From Candidatus Krumholzibacteriia bacterium (GTDB lineage: Bacteria; Krumholzibacteriota; Krumholzibacteriia; WVZY01), in assembly GCA_036478295.1 (NCBI GenBank), contig JAZGDW010000234.1:1-12254 (forward strand): a DNA stretch of 12,254 bases, read 5' to 3'. The translations under genes were made by a program, and so were the position numbers. Positions 2,197-12,254 of the stretch are shown piece by piece; position 1 is the first letter of the stretch; every line of letters starts with the position of its first letter. A model generated the notes under the pieces. The model made no database searches, was not told the DNA's origin, and saw only the letters and a program-made list of their open reading frames with translations.

Positions 2197-4386
2197 TTAG
2201 CGGAGCATCACCATTTTCTTCATATGCGTGACATCTCCTGACACAAACTTGTAAAAGTACACACCCGTCGACACACCGTTCCCCGCGTTATCTTTGCCGT
2301 CCCACGTAACGACGTGTGAGCCGGACGGGTACGTCGTATTCACCAGCGTCCGGATTTCGCGACCCTGGACGTCGTAGATCCTGATCACGACAGGGACGTC
2401 GAATGGAACGTCAAAGCCGATCCGAGTCGTCGGATTGAACGGGTTCGGGTAGTTCTGACCGATCCCGAAGCCCGTCGGTGTCGCCGGGCCGGAGCCGCCC
2501 TCGCTTGCGAGTGCAGGCATGGGCATCGGGCCGACGAAGAAGGGCCGCATCATTTCGTGGTCTTCGTGCGAGAGGATGTGGCAGTGCCACACGTACCGGC
2601 CATCACGGTCGAACTTGGCGATGACACGCGTGACCTGTCCGGGAAGCATGACGGCCGTGTCCTTCCAGCCTGCCTCGTTGGCCGCGGGCGGTGTCACATC
2701 GCCACCGAGACTGTTAACGGTGAGTATGCCGCCGACCCCTACACCACCGCTGTGCGAAGGTTGGTCCTTCTCCGCGACGGTCCCCTCGAACGACTCCCGG
2801 TTAATGATCTGGAATTTGACCAGGTGCAGGTGAACCGGGTGTGCGTCCTCGGTGGCGTTGTAGACCTCCCATACCTCGATGTCGTCGCGCAGCGGGTTCT
2901 CGGTAATGGGCTCGAACCACGCCATGGAACCTTCGTCCAGCGTTCCCAGGAGCGGTTGCAGACGACCGTATTCATCCAGGCCCTCGAAGAGAACCAGGTT
3001 GCGTGTCTCGCCGTCCTGTACGAGCGGCGCGATGTCCGGCCGCAGCGCGGTGCCGGGACCCACGGTCGCATTCGGTACCGCCAACAGCGGCCGGTCCACA
3101 ACGAACTTCATGATAATGCCGGTGGTTGCGGGGTCGGCCGGGGGCATGACGCCGCCCTCACCGTCGCTGACCGTGCCATCCGGGTTGAAACCCTTGAACG
3201 GATCGTCCGGACCGAAGTTCTTGAGGACCAGTTCGGTCTGGCCCGTAAAGTCGACCACGAGATCGCAGCGCTCGCCCGGGGCGATAAGGAGACGATCCAG
3301 CGTGACCGGCACGGGCAGCAAACCGGCGTCGGTTCCGATTTGCATGAACGATTGCTTGGCGTCTCCGGCATTGTGAAACTCGAGGATATAGAATCGCGAA
3401 TCCGAGCCGTTCAGCATGCGCAAACGGTACTTACGCGGCTCGACATTGTACTTCGGCCACGCCACACCGTTTACAATAATGAAATCCCCGAAGAACTCAG
3501 CGATGACAGTCGGACCCGGGGGCAGCGGCGGAAAGCCGGGTTCCAGCTCCGGATCCGTAGACGGGTAGAAAAGCGATCCGTCGTCGTTGAACATGCGGTC
3601 CTGGATCACGATCTCCGTTTCATACGGGGTGCCGGGCAGCACGCCGTCGGCAATGAGATGGTTCTCGTTCTTGTCCCGCAGCAGGTAGAAACCCGCGAGC
3701 CCCGCGTACACGTTCAGGCGCGTGATGCCCAGCGCGTGGTCGTGGTACCACAACGTCGCCGCTTCCTGATCGTTGTCGTAGCGGAAGGTCTTCTTGACGA
3801 ACTGTGGGCCCCGCTCTGCCCAATTCTGCGTGTACCACTGTTCCGGCAAGCCGTCGCTTGCCGACTCGGTGTGACCACCGTGCAGGTGAGTTACGGTCGG
3901 AATGCCACCGGCCACCGGGTGCGCCATGTGCAGCGTTGCATCCACCGGGAGCAGGTGTGCGCCCGGTCCGCCCGGAAAATTGTACGGCGGAAGCTTGTTC
4001 TTCCACTTGATTTCGACGGGTATGCCCTCTTGCGCGATAAATGTCGGTCCGGGAAACGTCGCCGCGCGGCCGGACTGGCCGTATCCCCATATAGTGGTCA
4101 TGAGCGGCGCGCCATCCGGCGCGACCAGCCCGAGCCACTGAACGGACTCACGCATTTCCATGCTGAATTTCACGGGACTCTTCCGCACCTTTAGCGACAT
4201 GGCGCCGGGTGTCGCACCGGTCGTCGCGCCGGTGGCGTCTAGCCGCAGGGGAATGGGGAGGTTATTCACGAATTTGGGGTGCCCGTCAGGATCCAGCAGC
4301 ACTTGTGCTGCGCTGGGCGTAACATTCCATACGAGCAACACTGCCAGCAGGACGAGCAGGCCCTTGAACAGGTTTTTTGCGAACAT
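2197..4386 (-). CDS. Exported multicopper oxidase (CotA/bilirubin oxidase-like) with C-terminal FlgD-Ig / T9SS type A sorting-like domain
   Basis: 729 aa with a signal peptide ending PSAA-Q. All four copper motifs are present: THLHGG, WYHDH, HPVHLH and WHCHILSHEDHEMM (axial Met). The last ~90 aa read QNYPNPFNPTTRIGF...IYDVQGREIRTLV...WDGKDNAGNGVSTGVYFYK...KKMVMLR. RBS GGAGG at 4393-4397. Confidence 0.96.
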   Translation of the reverse strand: MFAKNLFKGLLVLLAVLLVWNVTPSAAQVLLDPDGHPKFVNNLPIPLRLDATGATTGATPGAMSLKVRKSPVKFSMEMRESVQWLGLVAPDGAPLMTTIWGYGQSGRAATFPGPTFIAQEGIPVEIKWKNKLPPYNFPGGPGAHLLPVDATLHMAHPVAGGIPTVTHLHGGHTESASDGLPEQWYTQNWAERGPQFVKKTFRYDNDQEAATLWYHDHALGITRLNVYAGLAGFYLLRDKNENHLIADGVLPGTPYETEIVIQDRMFNDDGSLFYPSTDPELEPGFPPLPPGPTVIAEFFGDFIIVNGVAWPKYNVEPRKYRLRMLNGSDSRFYILEFHNAGDAKQSFMQIGTDAGLLPVPVTLDRLLIAPGERCDLVVDFTGQTELVLKNFGPDDPFKGFNPDGTVSDGEGGVMPPADPATTGIIMKFVVDRPLLAVPNATVGPGTALRPDIAPLVQDGETRNLVLFEGLDEYGRLQPLLGTLDEGSMAWFEPITENPLRDDIEVWEVYNATEDAHPVHLHLVKFQIINRESFEGTVAEKDQPSHSGGVGVGGILTVNSLGGDVTPPAANEAGWKDTAVMLPGQVTRVIAKFDRDGRYVWHCHILSHEDHEMMRPFFVGPMPMPALASEGGSGPATPTGFGIGQNYPNPFNPTTRIGFDVPFDVPVVIRIYDVQGREIRTLVNTTYPSGSHVVTWDGKDNAGNGVSTGVYFYKFVSGDVTHMKKMVMLR

Positions 4387-5155: not shown

Positions 5156-6553
5156 ATGATCGAATTTCAACCCGGCAACCTCAGGGTTCCCAAGTGGACG
5201 CGCCCTGTGTACATGGTAGCCGCGGGGGTGAGCGATTTTCGCAAACGCTATCCCGAGAAAAAACTCGAAGAGCTCTGCATGATGGCCTTCCGCATGATGC
5301 TCGAGGAAAACGATCTTAAACTGGATCCCCTGGACGTCAAGGGACTGATAAATTTTTGCTCCTACGGCGAGTTCGCCGACCATTTTCAGGACCAGCTGCT
5401 TTGTGAAGCGAAAGTGCACGACTACATCGGACTCGATCCTCTGCCCAACGTGGGGGTTAAGACTGGCGGCGCGACCGGCGGGTCGGCGCTCCTCGTGGGT
5501 GCCACGACCGTGGCAAGCGGCATGGCCGATTGTACGCTCGTCCTGGGCTGGGAGCGCATGGATGAAGTGAAGACGTGGACCGGCAACTATTATATTTCCA
5601 CAGCCGCGTGCAAGGACTTCGAGACGCGGCTGGCGCGCAATTACGCCAGCTACTACGCACCCATGGCCCGGCGCTTTCAGGAAATGTACAACGTGGACGA
5701 GCGCGTGCGCGCGGAGATAGCGGTCAAGAACCGCGGTTACGCGTGCAATTCGCCGTTCGCGCAGCAATCGGGCAAGCACACGATAGATGAGGTTCTCAAC
5801 GGCGCCATCGTTTCGGATCCCCTGCGCTTTCTGGAATGCTGCGCGATGAGCGTGGGATCGGCGGCGGTATTGCTCTGCTCGGAGGAGCTGGCCCACAAGC
5901 TCAGCGACTCGCCCGCGCGCGTATACGTAGCCGGCGGTTCGCATACGCTCCGCACCGGCGACCGAAGGCCCATGCGCATTCCGCTGCTGCCCAACGAGAC
6001 GGAAGAGGATTACGTCGAGCTCTACCAACAGATGGAAAAAGAAGATGGCCGCTGGCCGGGTTTCGAGAGCTTCGGCGCCACGCGGTTTGCGGCGTACATG
6101 GCGTATGGCATGGCCGGCATCAAGGATCCGCTCGAGGATTTCGACCTGGTCGAAACTCACGACGCGTTTACCATCTCGGATCTCCAGACCTACGGTGACA
6201 TAGGCATGACGCTCTATGGTAAAGAGCAGGATTACGTCACGTCCGGCGACTGCTATCTGATCAACCCGCACACCGGCAAACAGGGTAAATGCCCGGCCAA
6301 TCTCTCCGGCGGACTCCTCGGCACGATGCACGCGGTCGGCGCGACCGGCATCTGGCAGGCCGGCGAGGTTTTGTGGCAGCTGCAGGGCAAGTACGACCAG
6401 TTCCACGGTGACCCCAAACTCTGGGAGCGTTACGGCAAGAAGAAACCCGACGATTGGGAGAGTCTGCAGGTAAAGGATGCGCGCCGGGGGTTGGCCATCT
6501 CGCACGCGGGCGTCGGCTCGCACGTGGTTTGTACCGTTCTGGAAAAAGCATAG
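5156..6553 (+). CDS. Thiolase-superfamily protein (SCP2/archaeal-type thiolase-like) lacking the canonical nucleophilic Cys
   Basis: 465 aa, RBS AAGGAGG 5143-5149. Thiolase-fold motifs: RPVYMVAAGVSDF, LVLGWERM, IAVKNRGYA..SPFAQ, DPLRFLECCAMSVGSAA, VETHDAF and NLSGGLLGTMHAVGATG. VKTGGATGG occupies the position of VENACASG. Confidence 0.92.
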   Translation: MIEFQPGNLRVPKWTRPVYMVAAGVSDFRKRYPEKKLEELCMMAFRMMLEENDLKLDPLDVKGLINFCSYGEFADHFQDQLLCEAKVHDYIGLDPLPNVGVKTGGATGGSALLVGATTVASGMADCTLVLGWERMDEVKTWTGNYYISTAACKDFETRLARNYASYYAPMARRFQEMYNVDERVRAEIAVKNRGYACNSPFAQQSGKHTIDEVLNGAIVSDPLRFLECCAMSVGSAAVLLCSEELAHKLSDSPARVYVAGGSHTLRTGDRRPMRIPLLPNETEEDYVELYQQMEKEDGRWPGFESFGATRFAAYMAYGMAGIKDPLEDFDLVETHDAFTISDLQTYGDIGMTLYGKEQDYVTSGDCYLINPHTGKQGKCPANLSGGLLGTMHAVGATGIWQAGEVLWQLQGKYDQFHGDPKLWERYGKKKPDDWESLQVKDARRGLAISHAGVGSHVVCTVLEKA

Positions 6554-6565
6554 CAAGGAGACAAG

Positions 6566-7078
6566 ATGACCGATCGAGTCAAACTGAACACGAAACCCTC
6601 CGAGATCACAAAAGTGGACGACGCCTGGGTGCTGCACGTTCCGCGCTTCGGCGTGGAAGGACAGCATTTTCACACCTACGGCCTGCTTACTCCCTATTTC
6701 AAAGGGCTCACCGAGGGCCGGCTGATGGCGACGAAGTGCACCAATTCGAAGTGCCCCATTTCGAAAGGCAGAAGCGAGTTGTGGCTGCCCCCCCGCGCCG
6801 ACTGCCCGGATTGCCACCAGCCGATGGAGTGGGAAGAGATAAAGACCCCGAAGGGGTACATCTACTCGTTTACCTATGTCGAGCGCGGTGGCCAGGGTCT
6901 CGAAATCGAATGCCCGTACTACCAGATCGACGTTAAGCTAGAAGGCGTGGCCTCGATCGTGAAGAGCTACCTCGTCGATCGCAAGCCGATCAAGATCGGG
7001 GACAAGGTTCGCGCGCTTTTCGTGACCGGCAAGGACGCGACCAACACGTGCTTGGACTTGTACTGGGAACTTACCTAG
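6566..7078 (+). CDS. DUF35-family Zn-ribbon/OB-fold protein (thiolase partner, acyl-CoA binding)
   Basis: 170 aa, RBS AAGGAG 6555-6560. YFKGLTEGRLMATKCTNSKC...LPPRADCPDC forms the Zn ribbon, and MEWEEI...GYIYSFT...IKIGDKVRA the OB fold. It lies 12 nt after the thiolase-like gene, the usual arrangement for DUF35. Confidence 0.92.
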   Translation: MTDRVKLNTKPSEITKVDDAWVLHVPRFGVEGQHFHTYGLLTPYFKGLTEGRLMATKCTNSKCPISKGRSELWLPPRADCPDCHQPMEWEEIKTPKGYIYSFTYVERGGQGLEIECPYYQIDVKLEGVASIVKSYLVDRKPIKIGDKVRALFVTGKDATNTCLDLYWELT

Positions 7079-7091
7079 TTGCGGTGCCGCC

Positions 7092-8267
7092 GTGCACAGA
7101 GAAGCTGGAAATGATCGACACAAGCGGGCGTTGAACGAAACGCCGGGGACGGCGCGACGACTACGGATTCTGTTCGCCGATTCCGTCCGCGTCTGGGGCG
7201 GCGCGCAGCGATTCGTTCTGGAGTCGGCAACGCGTCTTGCGTCGCGCGGGCACCGGGTTGTCGTTCAGACCTATCCCGGCACACCGCTCGCGCAACGTGC
7301 GCGGGAATGCGGGCTACCGGTGAAAGAGGTGTCCACCCGCGCCGATGCCGCTCCGTGGACCGTCCTCCCTCTCGCCGCGCAGATGCTCCGCCACCCGTAC
7401 GATGTGTTGGTAACCACCTGGGACAAGGACCTGCGCACCGCAGGTCTGGCCGCAAAACTCTGCGGGCGCAGAACCCTCATTATCCATACTCGCGAGTGCG
7501 ACGACCGTCTCAAGAACCGGCTGCGCCACCGCTGGTTCTACAACCGGGTCGCGGACCACATCCTAGTCAATAGCGAGGCAACGTTGGCCACAACGCTTCG
7601 CTCGGCGCCCTGGCTCGACCGGAACCGTACCAGTATCCTTTATAAGGGTATCGAGCTTCGCGACTACGAATCGCTCCACCCAGAAACGTGGCGTAAGCAG
7701 ATGGACCCCAACGGGGACCGGGTAGTCATCGGCTATGCGGGTCAACTGATCGATCGCAAACGGATCGACGTGCTGATGCGCGCGCTATCCGCTCCCGAGG
7801 TAATGGAACTGCCGTGGCACCTGGCTATCGCCGGCCTGGGTCCGGCGGAGGAGCACCTTCGTGAGGAGGCCAGGCGTTTGGGCATAGAGCGGCGGGTGAG
7901 CTTCTGTGGTTTCGTCGATGCGCTCCACGACTGGATGGCGGCGATCGACATATTCGTCCTGCCTTCCCTCATCGAAGGCTTTGGCTACGTGCTGGCGGAA
8001 GCCGGCGCCGCCGGAAAACCGTCCGTCGCCTACCGCGCGAGCAGCGTCCCCGAAGTCGTCATCGACGGAGAGACAGCACTGCTAGCGGAATCCGGTGACG
8101 ACATCGAGTTCGGTCGCCATCTGAAGCGACTCATTACCGATTCGGGGCTTCGACAAAAAATGGGCGCCGCGGCCAGGCAGGATGTCTTCCGGCGCCACGG
8201 TCTCGACGCGATGGTCGAACGCATGGAAGCACGGATGTTCGAACTACTGGATCGTATACCACGCTGA
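7092..8267 (+). CDS. Glycosyltransferase family 4 (GT-B fold)
   Basis: LRILFADS..WGGAQR, ADHILVNS, ILYKGI, IGYAGQLIDRKR, DIFVLPSLIEGFGYVLAEAGAAGKP (E-x7-E motif), VPEVVIDGETALL and MGAAAR. The start is uncertain (GTG 7092 or TTG 7131) and has no clear RBS. Confidence 0.93.
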   Translation: MHREAGNDRHKRALNETPGTARRLRILFADSVRVWGGAQRFVLESATRLASRGHRVVVQTYPGTPLAQRARECGLPVKEVSTRADAAPWTVLPLAAQMLRHPYDVLVTTWDKDLRTAGLAAKLCGRRTLIIHTRECDDRLKNRLRHRWFYNRVADHILVNSEATLATTLRSAPWLDRNRTSILYKGIELRDYESLHPETWRKQMDPNGDRVVIGYAGQLIDRKRIDVLMRALSAPEVMELPWHLAIAGLGPAEEHLREEARRLGIERRVSFCGFVDALHDWMAAIDIFVLPSLIEGFGYVLAEAGAAGKPSVAYRASSVPEVVIDGETALLAESGDDIEFGRHLKRLITDSGLRQKMGAAARQDVFRRHGLDAMVERMEARMFELLDRIPR

Positions 8268-8315
8268 CCCGCCGACAACCTGCAGCACGGGACAGGGTGA
8301 CCGGGAGGGGTGCCG

Positions 8316-8954
8316 ATGGAGCAATTCCTGAACCACTGCGCAAGGGCCGTACTCGAGGGTGACAAACCGCTCGCGACGGACCTCGCGGCAAGAGTCCTCA
8401 CCGAACGCTACGACATTCTCCAGGTCATCGAGCAAGGATTCGCTATGGGCATCCGGCAGGCGGGGGCGCTGTGGGAGAAGGGGGAATACTTCCTGCCGGA
8501 GCTCGCCTTCAGCGCCGAGGCGATGAAGGCGGCCATGGATGTGCTCAATCCCGAGCTGCTCGAGCGGACGGACCAGGATCGTTCCAGGGGTGTCGTGGTC
8601 ATCGGCACGGTTCAGGGTGACATCCACGACATCGGCAAAACGCTTGTCGCCACCATGCTGACCGCAAACGGCTACCGGGTAATCGATATGGGTGCCGATA
8701 CCCAACACGCGCGTTTCCTCGAAGAAGCGACGAAACACCGGGCGGATGTGCTGTGTCTGTCCGCGCTCCTGACGACGACGATGGCCGGGCAGCGAGAGAT
8801 TATTGAGCTTCTCAAGAAGCAGAAACGAAGGGACAGCATCAAAGTGGTCATCGGCGGCGCGCCAACATCCGCCCAGTGGGCGCGGGAGATCGGCGCCGAC
8901 GGGTACGCCGAGAATGCGGTCGAGGCTGTCCACGTCGTCGCTTCGCTTCTCTGA
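8316..8954 (+). CDS. Corrinoid (cobalamin-binding) protein, MttC/MtbC-like, with cap and B12-binding domains
   Basis: Cap motif GEYFLPELAFSAEAMK. Base-off/His-on motif GTVQGDIHDIGK (DxHxxG, 8619-8636), followed by LSALLTTT and IGGAP. GGAGG at 8304-8308 favours ATG 8316 over GTG 8310. Confidence 0.95.
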   Translation: MEQFLNHCARAVLEGDKPLATDLAARVLTERYDILQVIEQGFAMGIRQAGALWEKGEYFLPELAFSAEAMKAAMDVLNPELLERTDQDRSRGVVVIGTVQGDIHDIGKTLVATMLTANGYRVIDMGADTQHARFLEEATKHRADVLCLSALLTTTMAGQREIIELLKKQKRRDSIKVVIGGAPTSAQWAREIGADGYAENAVEAVHVVASLL

Positions 8955-8965
8955 TTGGTCGAGCC

Positions 8966-9934
8966 ATGCCCGTTGCCGTGCGAGAATTGTTTGAACGGGG
9001 CGGGGTGCTCCTCGACGGCGGTCTGGGGAGCATGCTGATCGCGGCGGGGCTGCAGGCAGGCTCGCCTCCCGAAGAATGGAACCACACGAACCGAGACGTA
9101 ATAATGACGGTACACGCATCGTACCTGGCGGCAGGCTCCGACGTGATCTCGACGAACACGTTCGGCGCGACACCGGCACGCCTCGAAGGCCACGGCCTCG
9201 GGGACCAGCTGCGGAGCATCAACACGGCCGGCGTGCGCCTGGCAAGGGACGCCGTCGCCCGGTTCCGTGGCGGCCGGGCGGACAAAAACCAAAGGCGGGA
9301 CTCCGGGAACGAGGCGGCGGACGCCAGGTTTGTTGCCTTATCGATCGGCCCCACCGGAAAGATGCTGCCACCGGTCGGTGCGGCGAGTGAAGACGAGGTC
9401 AAGGCGGAGTTCACCGGGCAGTTCCGGAGCATTGAGGACGATTTCGATTTCGTGTTGATCGAAACCATCTTTGACTTGAGAGAGGGACTTCTCGCGCTCG
9501 AAGCGGCAAAGGACACTTTTCCGTATCCGGTCGCCGTCTCGCTGACCTACAACACGAATCCCCGGGGATTCTTTACGGTAATGGGAGATGAGGCCGGCGC
9601 CGCCGTCAAGCAACTCCAGGCAGCGGGCGCCGATGTCGTCGGCGCCAACTGCTCGATTTCGAGCGGTGATATGCTGGCGCTGGCCGATGTGCTGCGGCGG
9701 AATACGGATCTTCCGATTCTTTGCCAGCCCAACGCCGGCAATCCGACGGTCGAGAACCGTGTCCCCGTTTACAAGCAGCGTCCGGAGGAATTCGCCGGTG
9801 ATGCCATGAAGCTTTTCGAAAAAGGAATCAATGCGGTTGGCGGGTGCTGCGGAACGACCCCCGATTTCATACGTGAGGTGTCCGCCAGGCTCCGGCCAGG
9901 AAGGCCAAAGCCTGAAGGCGCCGCGGGCTCATAA
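8966..9934 (+). CDS. Homocysteine S-methyltransferase family protein (stand-alone MetH N-terminal, Zn/homocysteine-binding domain)
   Basis: LLDGGLGSML, PEEWN, VHASYLAAGSDVISTNTFGA, SIGPTG, LIETIFDLRE, QPNAG, and Zn ligands GANC (Cys 9650-9652) and GGCCGT (9845-9850). The start is placed at ATG 8966, 11 nt after the upstream stop. The ORF-track start at 8876 overlaps the previous gene. Confidence 0.95.
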   Translation: MPVAVRELFERGGVLLDGGLGSMLIAAGLQAGSPPEEWNHTNRDVIMTVHASYLAAGSDVISTNTFGATPARLEGHGLGDQLRSINTAGVRLARDAVARFRGGRADKNQRRDSGNEAADARFVALSIGPTGKMLPPVGAASEDEVKAEFTGQFRSIEDDFDFVLIETIFDLREGLLALEAAKDTFPYPVAVSLTYNTNPRGFFTVMGDEAGAAVKQLQAAGADVVGANCSISSGDMLALADVLRRNTDLPILCQPNAGNPTVENRVPVYKQRPEEFAGDAMKLFEKGINAVGGCCGTTPDFIREVSARLRPGRPKPEGAAGS

Positions 9935-10603
9935 ATGGAGAAGGTCCACCGCATACGCGACCTGGAGATTTCCATCGTCCAGGACGAGATCGCGGGGCTG
10001 CTCGGCTACGGGGAATCCGATATGCCCACGCGCGTGCGGACGATGATCACGGAGGCCGAAGCCGCTGCGCCGCGGCTTCTCTCGCCGGCGTGCGCCTACC
10101 GCATCATGGCTGTTGAGGAGTATCCGCAGTCGCGCTACCTCAATCACATCCAACAGTCGGCCTTTTGCCTGGTCACCATAGGCGGCGCGCTCGAGCGAGA
10201 GGTGCAGCGGCACAAGGAAAACGGCGAACTGGCCCGTGCGCTCGTCCTTGATGTCTACGGGTCCGCCGCGGCGGAGGCGACCGCCGTGGCCGCCAACGGA
10301 CTGATCGAGAGCGCTGTCTCCGCCAGGGGACTCCGGTGCAGCCGGAGGTTCAGCCCGGGCTATGGCGGGTGGGCCGTCGCCGAGCAGAAATGGATCTTGC
10401 CCGCGCTGGACGCGGACGTGCTCGAGGTAACGCTCACCGAAGGGTGCATGATGAACCCGCGAAAATCCATCACGTTCGCCGTCACGATCGGTGATGATCC
10501 AGTCGAGATGAGAACCGCCGACATTTGTGAAACGTGCGGTGCGGTTAACTGCCGGCTGCGACATACGGCGCGAAAATGTTTTGGGAGACGATCCGGCCAA
10601 TGA
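9935..10603 (+). CDS. Stand-alone B12-dependent methionine synthase activation (AdoMet-binding reactivation) domain protein
   Basis: 222 aa with LVTIGGALE, LDVYGSAAAE, RRFSPGYGGW, VTLTEGCMMNPRKSIT and C-terminal CETCGAVNC. It starts immediately after the upstream stop (TAA-ATG). Confidence 0.9.
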   Translation: MEKVHRIRDLEISIVQDEIAGLLGYGESDMPTRVRTMITEAEAAAPRLLSPACAYRIMAVEEYPQSRYLNHIQQSAFCLVTIGGALEREVQRHKENGELARALVLDVYGSAAAEATAVAANGLIESAVSARGLRCSRRFSPGYGGWAVAEQKWILPALDADVLEVTLTEGCMMNPRKSITFAVTIGDDPVEMRTADICETCGAVNCRLRHTARKCFGRRSGQ

Positions 10604-12081
10604 ACTTCGCTGACAGACCTCATTTCACTATCCTGCCGCCCGAGAGAATCGATCAAATCCTCGCTGAGGCCTTTGAGACCCTCGATAAAATCGGCGTCTT
10701 CATCGAGAACGATGAAGCGGTCGAGCGGCTCTCCGGTGCGGGAGCGAAGGTGTCCGATGATGGCAAACGGGTTTTCATCCCCAGGCAGCTCTGCGACAGG
10801 TGCATTGGCACCGTACCCAAAACCTTCACGCTTTACGATCGCGACGGCAACGATGCCGGGGTGGTTGGCGGTGACAACATCATCTTCAACCCGGGGTCGG
10901 CAGCGATTTCCATATATGACTTCGCCGAAAAACGCATTCGCGAACCCGTGACCGCGGACGTCATCGACTTTGTACTTCTCACCGATCGTCTCCCCGCGTT
11001 CGAAGCGCAGAGTACCGCAGTCGTTCCCACGGACGTCCCCGAACAACTGGCGGATCGTTACCGGCTGTTTCTCGCGTTGATTTACGGCAAAAAACCGGTC
11101 ATAACGGGGACCTTCACCAAAGAGGCCTATTCCACGATGCTCTCTTTGTTAACCGCGGTCAGGCGCGGCCCAGAGGAGCTGAAGAAAAAGCCACTAGCCG
11201 TGTTCGACTGCTGTCCCTCCCCGCCGCTCATGTGGAGCGATCTGACGTGCCAGGTATTGATGGACTGCGCGAAGCACGAAATCCCCGCGGAAACGGTTTC
11301 CATGCCGCTCGCCGGTGCTACCGGCCCGGTGACATTGGCAGGATCGCTCGTTCAGCACACCGCGGAAACGTTGAGTGGTGTCGTGATCCATCAGATCACC
11401 ACTCCGGGAGCCCGCCTGGTTTACGGAGGGGCGGCGGCGTGTTTCGACATGCGAAAGGGAACGACGCCCCAAGGCGCGGTGGAAACGATGATGATCGACA
11501 CAGCCTATGTCCAGATCGCCCGGACGCTCGGAATTCCCTCCCATGTCTACATGGGGCTCAGCGACGCGAAGCTGCCGGATTCGCAGGCGGGGTTCGAAAC
11601 GGCGATGGGAGCGACGCTGGCGGCGCTTGCCGGCGCCAACGTCGTATCGGGACCGGGGATGCTCAACTTCGTGAGCACGCAAAGCCTCGAAAAGCTCGTG
11701 CTGGACGGCGAAATCTGTGCGATGGCGCGGCGCCTGATCGAGGGCATCGCCTTTCGTGAAAAGAGTGCGGGTTTCGATGCCCTGCGAGAGTACGCCGTGA
11801 ATGGAAATTTTCTAGCATCGGAGCACACGCGGCGTTTCTTTCGCCAAGAGGTCTACTACCCGTCGGACGTGATAGACCGTGCAACACGCGGCGAGTGGGA
11901 AAAATCCGGCGCGCTGAGCGCGGAGGAAAGGGCCCACAGAACTGTGATCGAGCTGCTGGCACCGCCGCCCGACTCGCTGCTTTCACCAGACATCATCGAC
12001 GAGCTCGACGCAATCATGCAGGAAGACGCCAGTAAACACGGGCTCGACGCCCTGCCCGACTGGCGGTCACGGCTTGGTTGA
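10600..12081 (+). CDS. mttB: Trimethylamine methyltransferase (MttB) superfamily protein, non-pyrrolysine type
   Basis: TLDKIGV, VPKTFTLYDRDG, CPSPPLMWS, SMPLAGATGPVTLAGSLVQHTAETLSGVVIHQ..PGARLVYGG, DMRKG, SDAKLPDSQAGFE, GPGML, SLEKLVLDGE and FLASEHT. ATG 10600 overlaps the upstream TGA (ATGA), with GGGAG at 10583-10587. Leu (CTC 11557-11559) sits at the pyrrolysine-equivalent position. Confidence 0.95.
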   Translation: MNFADRPHFTILPPERIDQILAEAFETLDKIGVFIENDEAVERLSGAGAKVSDDGKRVFIPRQLCDRCIGTVPKTFTLYDRDGNDAGVVGGDNIIFNPGSAAISIYDFAEKRIREPVTADVIDFVLLTDRLPAFEAQSTAVVPTDVPEQLADRYRLFLALIYGKKPVITGTFTKEAYSTMLSLLTAVRRGPEELKKKPLAVFDCCPSPPLMWSDLTCQVLMDCAKHEIPAETVSMPLAGATGPVTLAGSLVQHTAETLSGVVIHQITTPGARLVYGGAAACFDMRKGTTPQGAVETMMIDTAYVQIARTLGIPSHVYMGLSDAKLPDSQAGFETAMGATLAALAGANVVSGPGMLNFVSTQSLEKLVLDGEICAMARRLIEGIAFREKSAGFDALREYAVNGNFLASEHTRRFFRQEVYYPSDVIDRATRGEWEKSGALSAEERAHRTVIELLAPPPDSLLSPDIIDELDAIMQEDASKHGLDALPDWRSRLG

Positions 12082-12175
12082 GCGGCGCGCCGTCCAATCC
12101 ACGAGAATGAAGAGCGTTGCCTTGTGGGGCAGTTTCCAGCACCGCGCTCCGCTTCGCTCGGCTACCCAGCGGCCA

Positions 12176-12254
12176 GCGCGGGTGGCAGCGAACGGGCGCC
12201 CGGCCGCGCGCAGCTTGCGAGCACGGACGGGCTGTTCGCTGACAGGACCCGCGC
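12176..12254. repeat. Long imperfect inverted repeat (nested hairpin), possibly continuing beyond the window
   Basis: Nested pairings: GCGCGGGT 12176-12183 / ACCCGCGC 12247-12254; CAGCGAAC 12186-12193 / GTTCGCTG 12234-12241; GCCCG 12198-12202 / CGGGC 12228-12232; CCG 12204-12206 / CGG 12224-12226; CGCA 12209-12212 / TGCG 12216-12219. Confidence 0.75.

Follow-up and report, generated by a model that had tools for sequence, protein, structure and literature searches.

Four consecutive genes in a 12,254-nt contig of Candidatus Krumholzibacteriia bacterium (GCA_036478295.1, contig JAZGDW010000234.1; the entire contig, label C151, is here called the window) probably encode a self-contained corrinoid methionine synthase that would work independently of folate and draw its methyl group from a donor other than betaine. 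The four products are a corrinoid protein, a stand-alone homocysteine S-methyltransferase (HMT) domain, a protein resembling the S-adenosylmethionine (AdoMet, SAM) activation domain of MetH, and a non-pyrrolysine member of the MttB superfamily. The gene set and its order, the conservation of catalytic motifs, the folds and the co-occurrence across genomes are direct observations, from which we infer every chemical step of the following pathway. The MttB-family enzyme would transfer a methyl group from its donor to the corrinoid protein, from which the HMT domain would hand it to homocysteine, probably supplied by S-adenosylhomocysteine (SAH) hydrolase, yielding methionine, and the activation protein would use AdoMet to repair corrinoid oxidized to Co(II). 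Labels beginning with G, C and L denote the genomes, contigs and loci of the analysis; G000 is the window's own genome, an assembly of 3.5 Mb with a completeness of 90.9%, and a homologue search placed the nearest named homologues in Krumholzibacteriia/Latescibacterota.

Components of the operon

The features of the operon and its 3' border, with the evidence for each, are these:

8302..8309, + strand: Shine-Dalgarno-like purine run, 5' of the first ATG (sequence)
8316..8954, + strand: corrinoid (B12-binding) protein, MttC/MtmC type, 212 aa (PF02607 and PF02310)
8966..9934, + strand: stand-alone HMT domain of the MetH N-terminal family, 322 aa (PF02574)
9935..10603, + strand: stand-alone TM0269-like AdoMet activation protein, 222 aa (phmmer, homologue profile, AlphaFold2 (AF2)/Foldseek)
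10526..10552, + strand: CxxCx4C motif (C198, C201, C206), C-terminal in the activation protein (76/79 homologues)
10600..12081, + strand: non-pyrrolysine MttB-superfamily methyltransferase, 493 aa (PF06253)
12134..12254, no strand assigned: dispersed intergenic repeat where the contig breaks, outside the operon (31 copies in the genome)

The four open reading frames (ORFs) lie on the + strand with spacings of 11, 0 and -4 nt between successive genes, in an order (corrinoid-HMT-activation-MttB) that we call type 1 and distinguish from type 2 (MttB-activation-corrinoid-HMT). A preliminary description of this DNA had given the same spacings and domain types, and both were borne out by the ORF positions, by Pfam for genes 1, 2 and 4, and by homology and fold for gene 3. 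No pterin-binding gene was found within the four-gene cluster, as that description had also stated, and the end of the operon could be fixed, since the end of the window shares 75 identical nt with contig C260, which carries the same convergent genes as lie 3' of mttB in the same-genus genome G001. Because of this join and synteny nothing further of the operon is expected downstream of mttB, and a pterin gene concealed beyond the contig end was ruled out as a candidate. The hairpin DNA described after the cluster was not recovered: folding of 12082-12254 gave z = 0.37 against shuffles, and positions 12134-12254 had no match in Rfam, so that the hairpin or terminator reading gave way to a dispersed repeat of ~115 nt, present in 31 genome copies of at least 60 nt, 10 of them no more than 250 nt from a contig end.

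The corrinoid protein matched B12-binding (E 2e-29) and B12-binding_2 (E 5e-20) in Pfam. It scored 217 bits with the MtgC model and 211 bits with TIGR02370, the model of pyrrolysine-cognate corrinoid proteins (cut-off 215.3), in both cases below the cut-off, and 134 bits with the metH model; its best PDB match was MttC 7xcn (E 4e-47), MetH following at E 2e-25, and it stood at 34% against the MetH of G000 itself. Residues D102, H104 and G107 of its D102-x-H104-x-x-G107 motif, together with S149, were invariant in 30/30 homologues and agree with the triad of His, Asp and Thr that is known from MttC (PMC9842639). D1093 of E. coli MetH, partner of His759 (PMC10293825), aligned with S110 here, and we do not claim it as conserved. 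Judged by these comparisons the protein is of the MttC/MtmC type and not a MetH-type cobalamin domain, and because it lies nearer MttC/MtmC than MetH the system is a mosaic and not a fissioned MetH. The fourth product belongs to MTTB (PF06253, E 1e-91), reached 390 bits with TIGR02369 against a cut-off of 525, and was about equally close to MtgB (9yce/2qne) and MttB (7xcl), with E values of ~2e-64 to 6e-64.

The second product matched S-methyl_trans (PF02574) with an E value of 1e-61, and T. maritima MetH was its best PDB match (1q7m, E 4e-39), betaine-homocysteine methyltransferase reaching merely 1e-12; profile models and PDB comparison alike placed it nearest to MetH/YitJ domains. Residues C229, C294, C295, N256 and E166, which we take to be the Zn/homocysteine-binding positions, align with those of T. 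maritima MetH and were invariant in 64/64 cluster HMTs. As a separate observation, three genomes of family f1 encode, at a distance of 2-6 kb from the operon, one more PF02574 protein that is divergent in sequence (L037:12597-13427; G011:C1:3777692-3778477; G002:C17:43974-44759).

Queried alone, the third product had no Pfam or NCBIfam match, and phmmer linked it to TM0269 (1j6r) at E 0.0025. PF02965 was found in 46/48 aligned homologues, the homologue profile matched 1j6r (1e-19) and MetH C-terminal domains, and the AF2 model (predicted local distance difference test, pLDDT, 90.8) had 1j6r as its top Foldseek hit (E 2e-12, TM 0.72/0.80), followed by MetH reactivation domains. Within the motif R138-F-S-P-G-Y143, an instance of the RxxxGY motif that is presumably the functional motif of the AdoMet activation module, Y143 was present in 79/79 homologues, and R138 in 45/45 of type 1 and 17/34 of type 2. 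The CxxCx4C tail occurs in 76/79 homologues, the three exceptions coming from loci with corrinoid, activation and MttB genes but without an HMT (L092, L115 and L133), and it was not seen at the C-terminus of the fused MetH of G000. This tail, whose region has a pLDDT of 52-70 in the AF2 model, is a possible metal site. An atlas search with the Cys tail returned no match at or above 0.9; atlas structure rows led to activation proteins that stand alone in Bacillota and Bacteroidota, a lead that the tail may not be specific to the cluster. Reactivation of MetH uses AdoMet and flavodoxin (PMC10293825), and flavodoxin (PF00258) was not found in 5/5 genomes examined; support from this for a redox role of the tail is weak, since the fused MetH of G000 is likewise without one.

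Co-folding of the corrinoid and activation proteins with SAM gave an ipSAE of 0.54 (best of 3 controls, 0.00), with a contact agreement of at least 45% and a partner pLDDT of at least 82. The ipSAE mark was reached by 116/157 solved pairs and 2/215 mismatched pairs, and at values of 0.60 or below by only 18/157 solved pairs plus both mismatches; the model thus weakly supports the pairing, and its score may mirror likeness to solved complexes of the cobalamin and activation domains of MetH.

Conservation of the cluster and methionine genes of its carriers

Conservation of the cluster was surveyed in the best 80 of 182 confirmed MttB loci. All four genes were present at 45 of these 80 (22 type 1, 23 type 2), and 35 loci were partial. 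Where both flanks extended for at least 3.2 kb (also 45 loci), 33 clusters were complete, 7 had MttB alone, 2 lacked only the HMT (corrinoid-activation-MttB), 1 lacked the HMT in type-2 order, 1 lacked the corrinoid gene, and 1 lay near a fused MetH. Within the class, MTTB and activation homologues mark the identical 25/61 genomes; all four genes lie on one contig in 20 of the 24 relatives with the cluster (in two of them mttB is cut by the contig end), and in the remaining 4 the cluster is interrupted by contig ends. As a check of gene order suggested in the preliminary description, this shows mttB to be syntenic with the other three genes. The record titles of the loci name Krumholzibacteriota, Zixiibacteriota, Acidobacteriota, Myxococcales, Gemmatimonadota, Planctomycetota, Cloacimonadota, Bacteroidia, Ignavibacteria and Electryoneota. 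Trees were built from 57 sequences, namely the window and 56 of 58 complete loci, 2 being omitted because of their length. Types 1 and 2 formed separate clades with support 1.0 for each of the four genes, the split of the MttB tree by type being so by construction, and within-type patristic distances correlated among the four genes (rho 0.59-0.85, among kin that are not independent).

The window's own genome encodes a fused MetH (1256-aa frame, C41), a YitJ-type fusion of HMT and methylenetetrahydrofolate reductase (MTHFR) on C208, and FolP (C31), and its pterin domains are those of FolP and the fused MetH only; at 90.9% completeness RACo/RamA, MetE and a stand-alone pterin methyltransferase were not found. 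Because of the fused MetH the operon is an extra route in G000 and not the sole one. RACo/RamA was detected in 1/61 class genomes, inside a gene cluster for acetyl-CoA synthase (ACS)/CO dehydrogenase (G008, L147:6476-14001), a scarcity that agrees with an apparent AdoMet-type reactivation. BLAST at E 1e-5 revealed no stand-alone gene for a RACo domain or a MetH pterin domain in the 80 loci, where the sole linked pterin domain belonged to one fused MetH 3.6 kb away.

Among the 25 cluster genomes, 14 have a fused MetH; the 4 of family f5 encode instead a stand-alone MeTr-like protein that is unlinked to the cluster, and the other 7 yielded neither. In these seven no MetH- or MeTr-type pterin domain, and hence no corrinoid-directed folate module, was detected, the lone pterin match being FolP-like; 4 of them carry MetE, two of the four being single-contig assemblies. 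In G044 (99% complete) and G056 (98%) PF02574 matched nothing but the cluster HMT, and no MetH, MetE, MTHFR or folate module was found in either, SAH hydrolase being present. The gene content of these two genomes is the strongest evidence that the system is independent of folate, and a folate-binding subunit encoded elsewhere, named in the preliminary description as the finding that would overturn its reading, did not emerge from the seven genomes. The supposed four-part, folate-independent synthase gained support from comparative genomics as a route without a folate module; the methylamine or betaine named as donor did not (see below).

MetA was found in 0/5 genomes examined, SAH hydrolase in 5/5, and MetX in 0/61, which yielded only 10 short hydrolase-fold matches with a model whose cut-off was passed in 0/14 controls, yet gave a signal in 9. 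Given the presence of SAH hydrolase and the failure to find MetX or MetA, homocysteine would come mostly from the SAM cycle, and the likely role of the operon is to close the SAM methyl cycle, in G000 beside the fused MetH.

These gene contents also bear on a different assignment, in which the corrinoid protein is a shared hub as in Ruegeria/Phaeobacter: a methyl-tetrahydrofolate (THF):corrinoid methyltransferase encoded elsewhere would supply methionine synthesis from folate, and MttB would mainly feed donor methyls to THF. Genetic precedent exists, as MtgC and MtgD serve in both roles (PMC12478193), and all 4 f5 cluster genomes, which are without a fused MetH, encode a cluster-unlinked MeTr-like pterin-binding protein of 265-269 aa (L135-L138, in G038, G043, G058 and G053) whose PDB matches are 4o0q (E 2e-41) and then 2yci. 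This assignment is nevertheless unlikely, because no such module was found in 7/25 cluster genomes, of which G044 and G056 are also without MTHFR, a stand-alone pterin gene stands beside 0/80 loci, and G000 offers no pterin domain other than the two named above.

The cluster might also be a demethylation or detoxification module, for which the demethylated product or the removal of the substrate is what matters and homocysteine is a sink, or another thiol or selenol is the acceptor of the HMT-family domain. The PF02574 family does include non-homocysteine acceptors, fused MetH is already present in 14 of the 25 carriers and MetE in 4 others, the two MttB paralogues of G000 differ in pocket type, and partner-less homologues adjoin molybdo-hydroxylase genes (L083; both described below). 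However, the HMT keeps all the MetH-type residues checked, in 64/64 proteins, and is nearest to MetH/YitJ domains; a catabolic pathway predicts conserved flanking genes, whereas the flanks here vary; and in G044 and G056 the cluster HMT is the sole candidate for homocysteine remethylation. We therefore regard a module of this kind as quite improbable.

Several points weigh against a folate-independent methionine synthase. Fused MetH occurs in 14 of the 25 carriers, G000 included, and the MeTr-like protein of the 4 f5 genomes could feed or drain the corrinoid protein. The absences rest on metagenome-assembled genomes (MAGs), and genes can be missed, as G008 shows, in which no MeTr was detected despite its ACS cluster. 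Gene-tree congruence can arise from linkage alone. The MttB clade is not bound to homocysteine everywhere, because 7/45 well-flanked loci are partner-less and 2 have corrinoid and activation genes without an HMT. Finally, no conserved transporter or donor-pathway gene was seen beside the cluster among 55 flanking genes scanned, and betaine/carnitine/choline transporters (BCCT) were found in 0/5 genomes; with no theme shared by the 55 neighbours, flanking genes were discarded as donor clues.

Beyond the folate-independent synthase itself, we consider a stronger version tentative and rather doubtful. It would make the four proteins a self-sufficient methionine regenerator with a donor new to the MttB family, dispensing with folate, RamA and flavodoxin since the CxxCx4C tail would be a redox metal centre; it would be the sole means of homocysteine remethylation in some genomes of the class, and the donor of the window's subclade, with its neutral H/N/V pocket, would differ from that of the published cluster.

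Methyl donor and flanking genes

To our knowledge, the characterised non-pyrrolysine members of the MttB superfamily all use acidic quaternary amines. MtgB binds betaine through Y97, R312, H348 and F356, its R312L variant is inactive, and R312 is kept in MtcB, MtpB, MtyB and MthB (PMC13080624). In one pairwise alignment (file numbering offset 2), in which the H348 position borders a one-residue gap, the corresponding positions of the window protein were S100/H315/S350/V358, and Pyl334 and Tyr364 of trimethylamine MttB aligned to L320 and S350, with no in-frame stop. The residues were surveyed in 98 proteins, comprising the window, its paralogue and 96 loci, after five duplicates, three partial loci and fragments below 70% length had been left out. 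The R312 position was H in 46 and Q in 52 (R in 0/98), the Y97 position S in 98/98, the H348 position S/A/T, the F356 position E/V/I/M/Q, and the pyrrolysine position L in 91, M in 6 and I in 1, with pyrrolysine in none. At positions 315/356/358 the pocket was Q/D/E in 51 proteins, H/D/E in 25, H/N/E in 9, H/N/(V,I,M) in 9 including the window (H315/N356/V358), and otherwise composed in 4.

From these residues glycine betaine, carnitine, butyrobetaine, proline betaine and phosphocholine are all unlikely as donor, and so is trimethylamine by the pyrrolysine route; the donor proposed at first, a methylamine or betaine, has family membership, the nearest solved structures (MtgB and MttB) and the sub-cut-off corrinoid scores with MtgC and pyrrolysine-cognate models on its side, but with the MtgB-essential arginine replaced in 98/98, the other three betaine residues replaced too and L/M/I at the pyrrolysine site, it is highly improbable. 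The most likely donor class is that of methylated N- or S-compounds that bear no acidic group. In most members the acidic pair would fit a donor that is cationic and lacks a carboxylate, and the neutral pocket variant of the window may accept a different donor.

A second MttB gene of G000 (C243:1-1779, - strand) encodes a non-pyrrolysine, type-2 protein with a Q/D/E pocket, 48% identical to that of the window. It is directly followed by an activation-type ORF severed by the contig end and probably belongs to a second, type-2 operon; the G000 assembly yielded no type-2 corrinoid or HMT gene to go with it.

Neighbours of some other loci are recorded as observations in their own right. An isochorismatase-family gene lies directly 3' of mttB in f5 genomes (L044:10700-11377, L045:4151-5706, L046:5449-6995), a possible donor clue, and in some of them an FAD oxidoreductase gene comes next (Pfam scans covered L044 and L045). 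A partner-less MttB homologue sits within a xanthine-dehydrogenase-type cluster (L083:194-8771), and Mo-hydroxylase subunits are encoded immediately 3' of mttB at L034:1975-4670 (G007); the Mo-hydroxylase neighbours at these two loci hint at N-methylated heterocycles as donors.

Upstream of the operon, the window encodes a GT4 glycosyltransferase (7092-8267, + strand) that ends 48 nt 5' of the corrinoid gene and is directly upstream elsewhere only in the same-genus genome. Before it, at 5156-7078 (+ strand), come an archaeal-type thiolase-domain protein (PRK06365 model, 506 bits, below cut-off) and a ChsH2/OB-fold partner. This pair is also upstream in G001, and in G048 some 3.7 kb separates it from the cluster. 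The thiolase, OB-fold and GT4 genes were rejected as members of the system: among 25 fetched loci the identical block precedes the cluster in G001 only, with partial echoes in G048 (the thiolase/OB pair) and G012 (a distant GT4). Further away on the - strand are a secreted-type multicopper oxidase with a FlgD/T9SS-like domain at its C-terminus (2197-4386), a short c-type cytochrome ORF with three CxxCH motifs (1452-1955; Pfam Cytochrome_C554) that ends abruptly and is possibly a truncated multiheme cytochrome, and an M28 peptidase gene severed by the contig start (3-1334).

Comparison with known systems

The cluster and the hypothesis are already known. Williams et al. 2022 (PMC9324843, Fig. 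S3, Table S4) reported the same four components in Ca. Electryoneota as well as in six further MAGs, in genomes that also have a fused MetH, and proposed that methionine is made there by a corrinoid-dependent route beside MetH, from an unknown methyl donor; this limits the surprise. A non-pyrrolysine MttB together with an activation protein, singled out in the preliminary description as the unusual part, was thus in print. The order in Table S4 of that work is HMT-corrinoid-activation-MttB, type 2 here, whereas the window is type 1 and falls in the sister clade in all four trees; Krumholzibacteriota is not among the 8 MAGs of its listing. The Ca. Electryonea clarkiae contig of Williams 2022 corresponds to our L114, of type 2, with an MttB 48% identical to that of the window and a Q/D/E pocket against H315/N356/V358. 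What appears to be new is the other gene order, the genomes apparently dependent on the cluster, and the CxxCx4C tail of the activator. No biochemical test of the cluster was found in the literature searched (subscription papers not covered).

If the system works as predicted, it adds a further route to methionine that depends on a corrinoid yet not on folate. It would also bring a new donor class to the MttB superfamily, explain how the SAM cycle is closed in uncultured bacteria without MetH, MetE and MTHFR, and mean that an AdoMet activation domain can repair a methylamine-type corrinoid protein without RamA.

The parallel with Roseobacter-group bacteria drawn at first proved loose, and that system is an analogue only. 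Ruegeria pomeroyi and Phaeobacter inhibens (MtgBCDE) likewise combine an MttB-family enzyme with stand-alone corrinoid and PF02574 proteins in one cell, but their pterin module MtgD is essential for methionine, their genes are scattered, and RamA/DUF1638 proteins are the predicted reactivators (PMC12478193; bioRxiv 10.64898/2025.12.19.695462). The system of the window, unlike theirs, forms one operon with no pterin gene and with a PF02965 protein, and no RACo was found in G000.

With MetH, whether fused as in E. coli or divided as in Thermotoga (TM0268 and TM0269), the cluster shares a homocysteine domain with three Cys and Asn/Glu, a His-on corrinoid motif and an AdoMet activation fold, and with T. 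maritima also the stand-alone activation protein. It differs in having no folate domain, an MttC-type corrinoid protein and a Cys tail on the activator, and in that no flavodoxin was found in 5/5 genomes. With Desulfitobacterium MtgB/MtgC/MtgA and Methanosarcina MttB/MttC (PMC13080624, PMC9842639) it shares the MttB TIM-barrel family and a corrinoid protein of the cognate type, whereas its acceptor enzyme is an HMT and not a THF or coenzyme M methyltransferase, RamA is missing, and both the betaine residues and pyrrolysine are absent.

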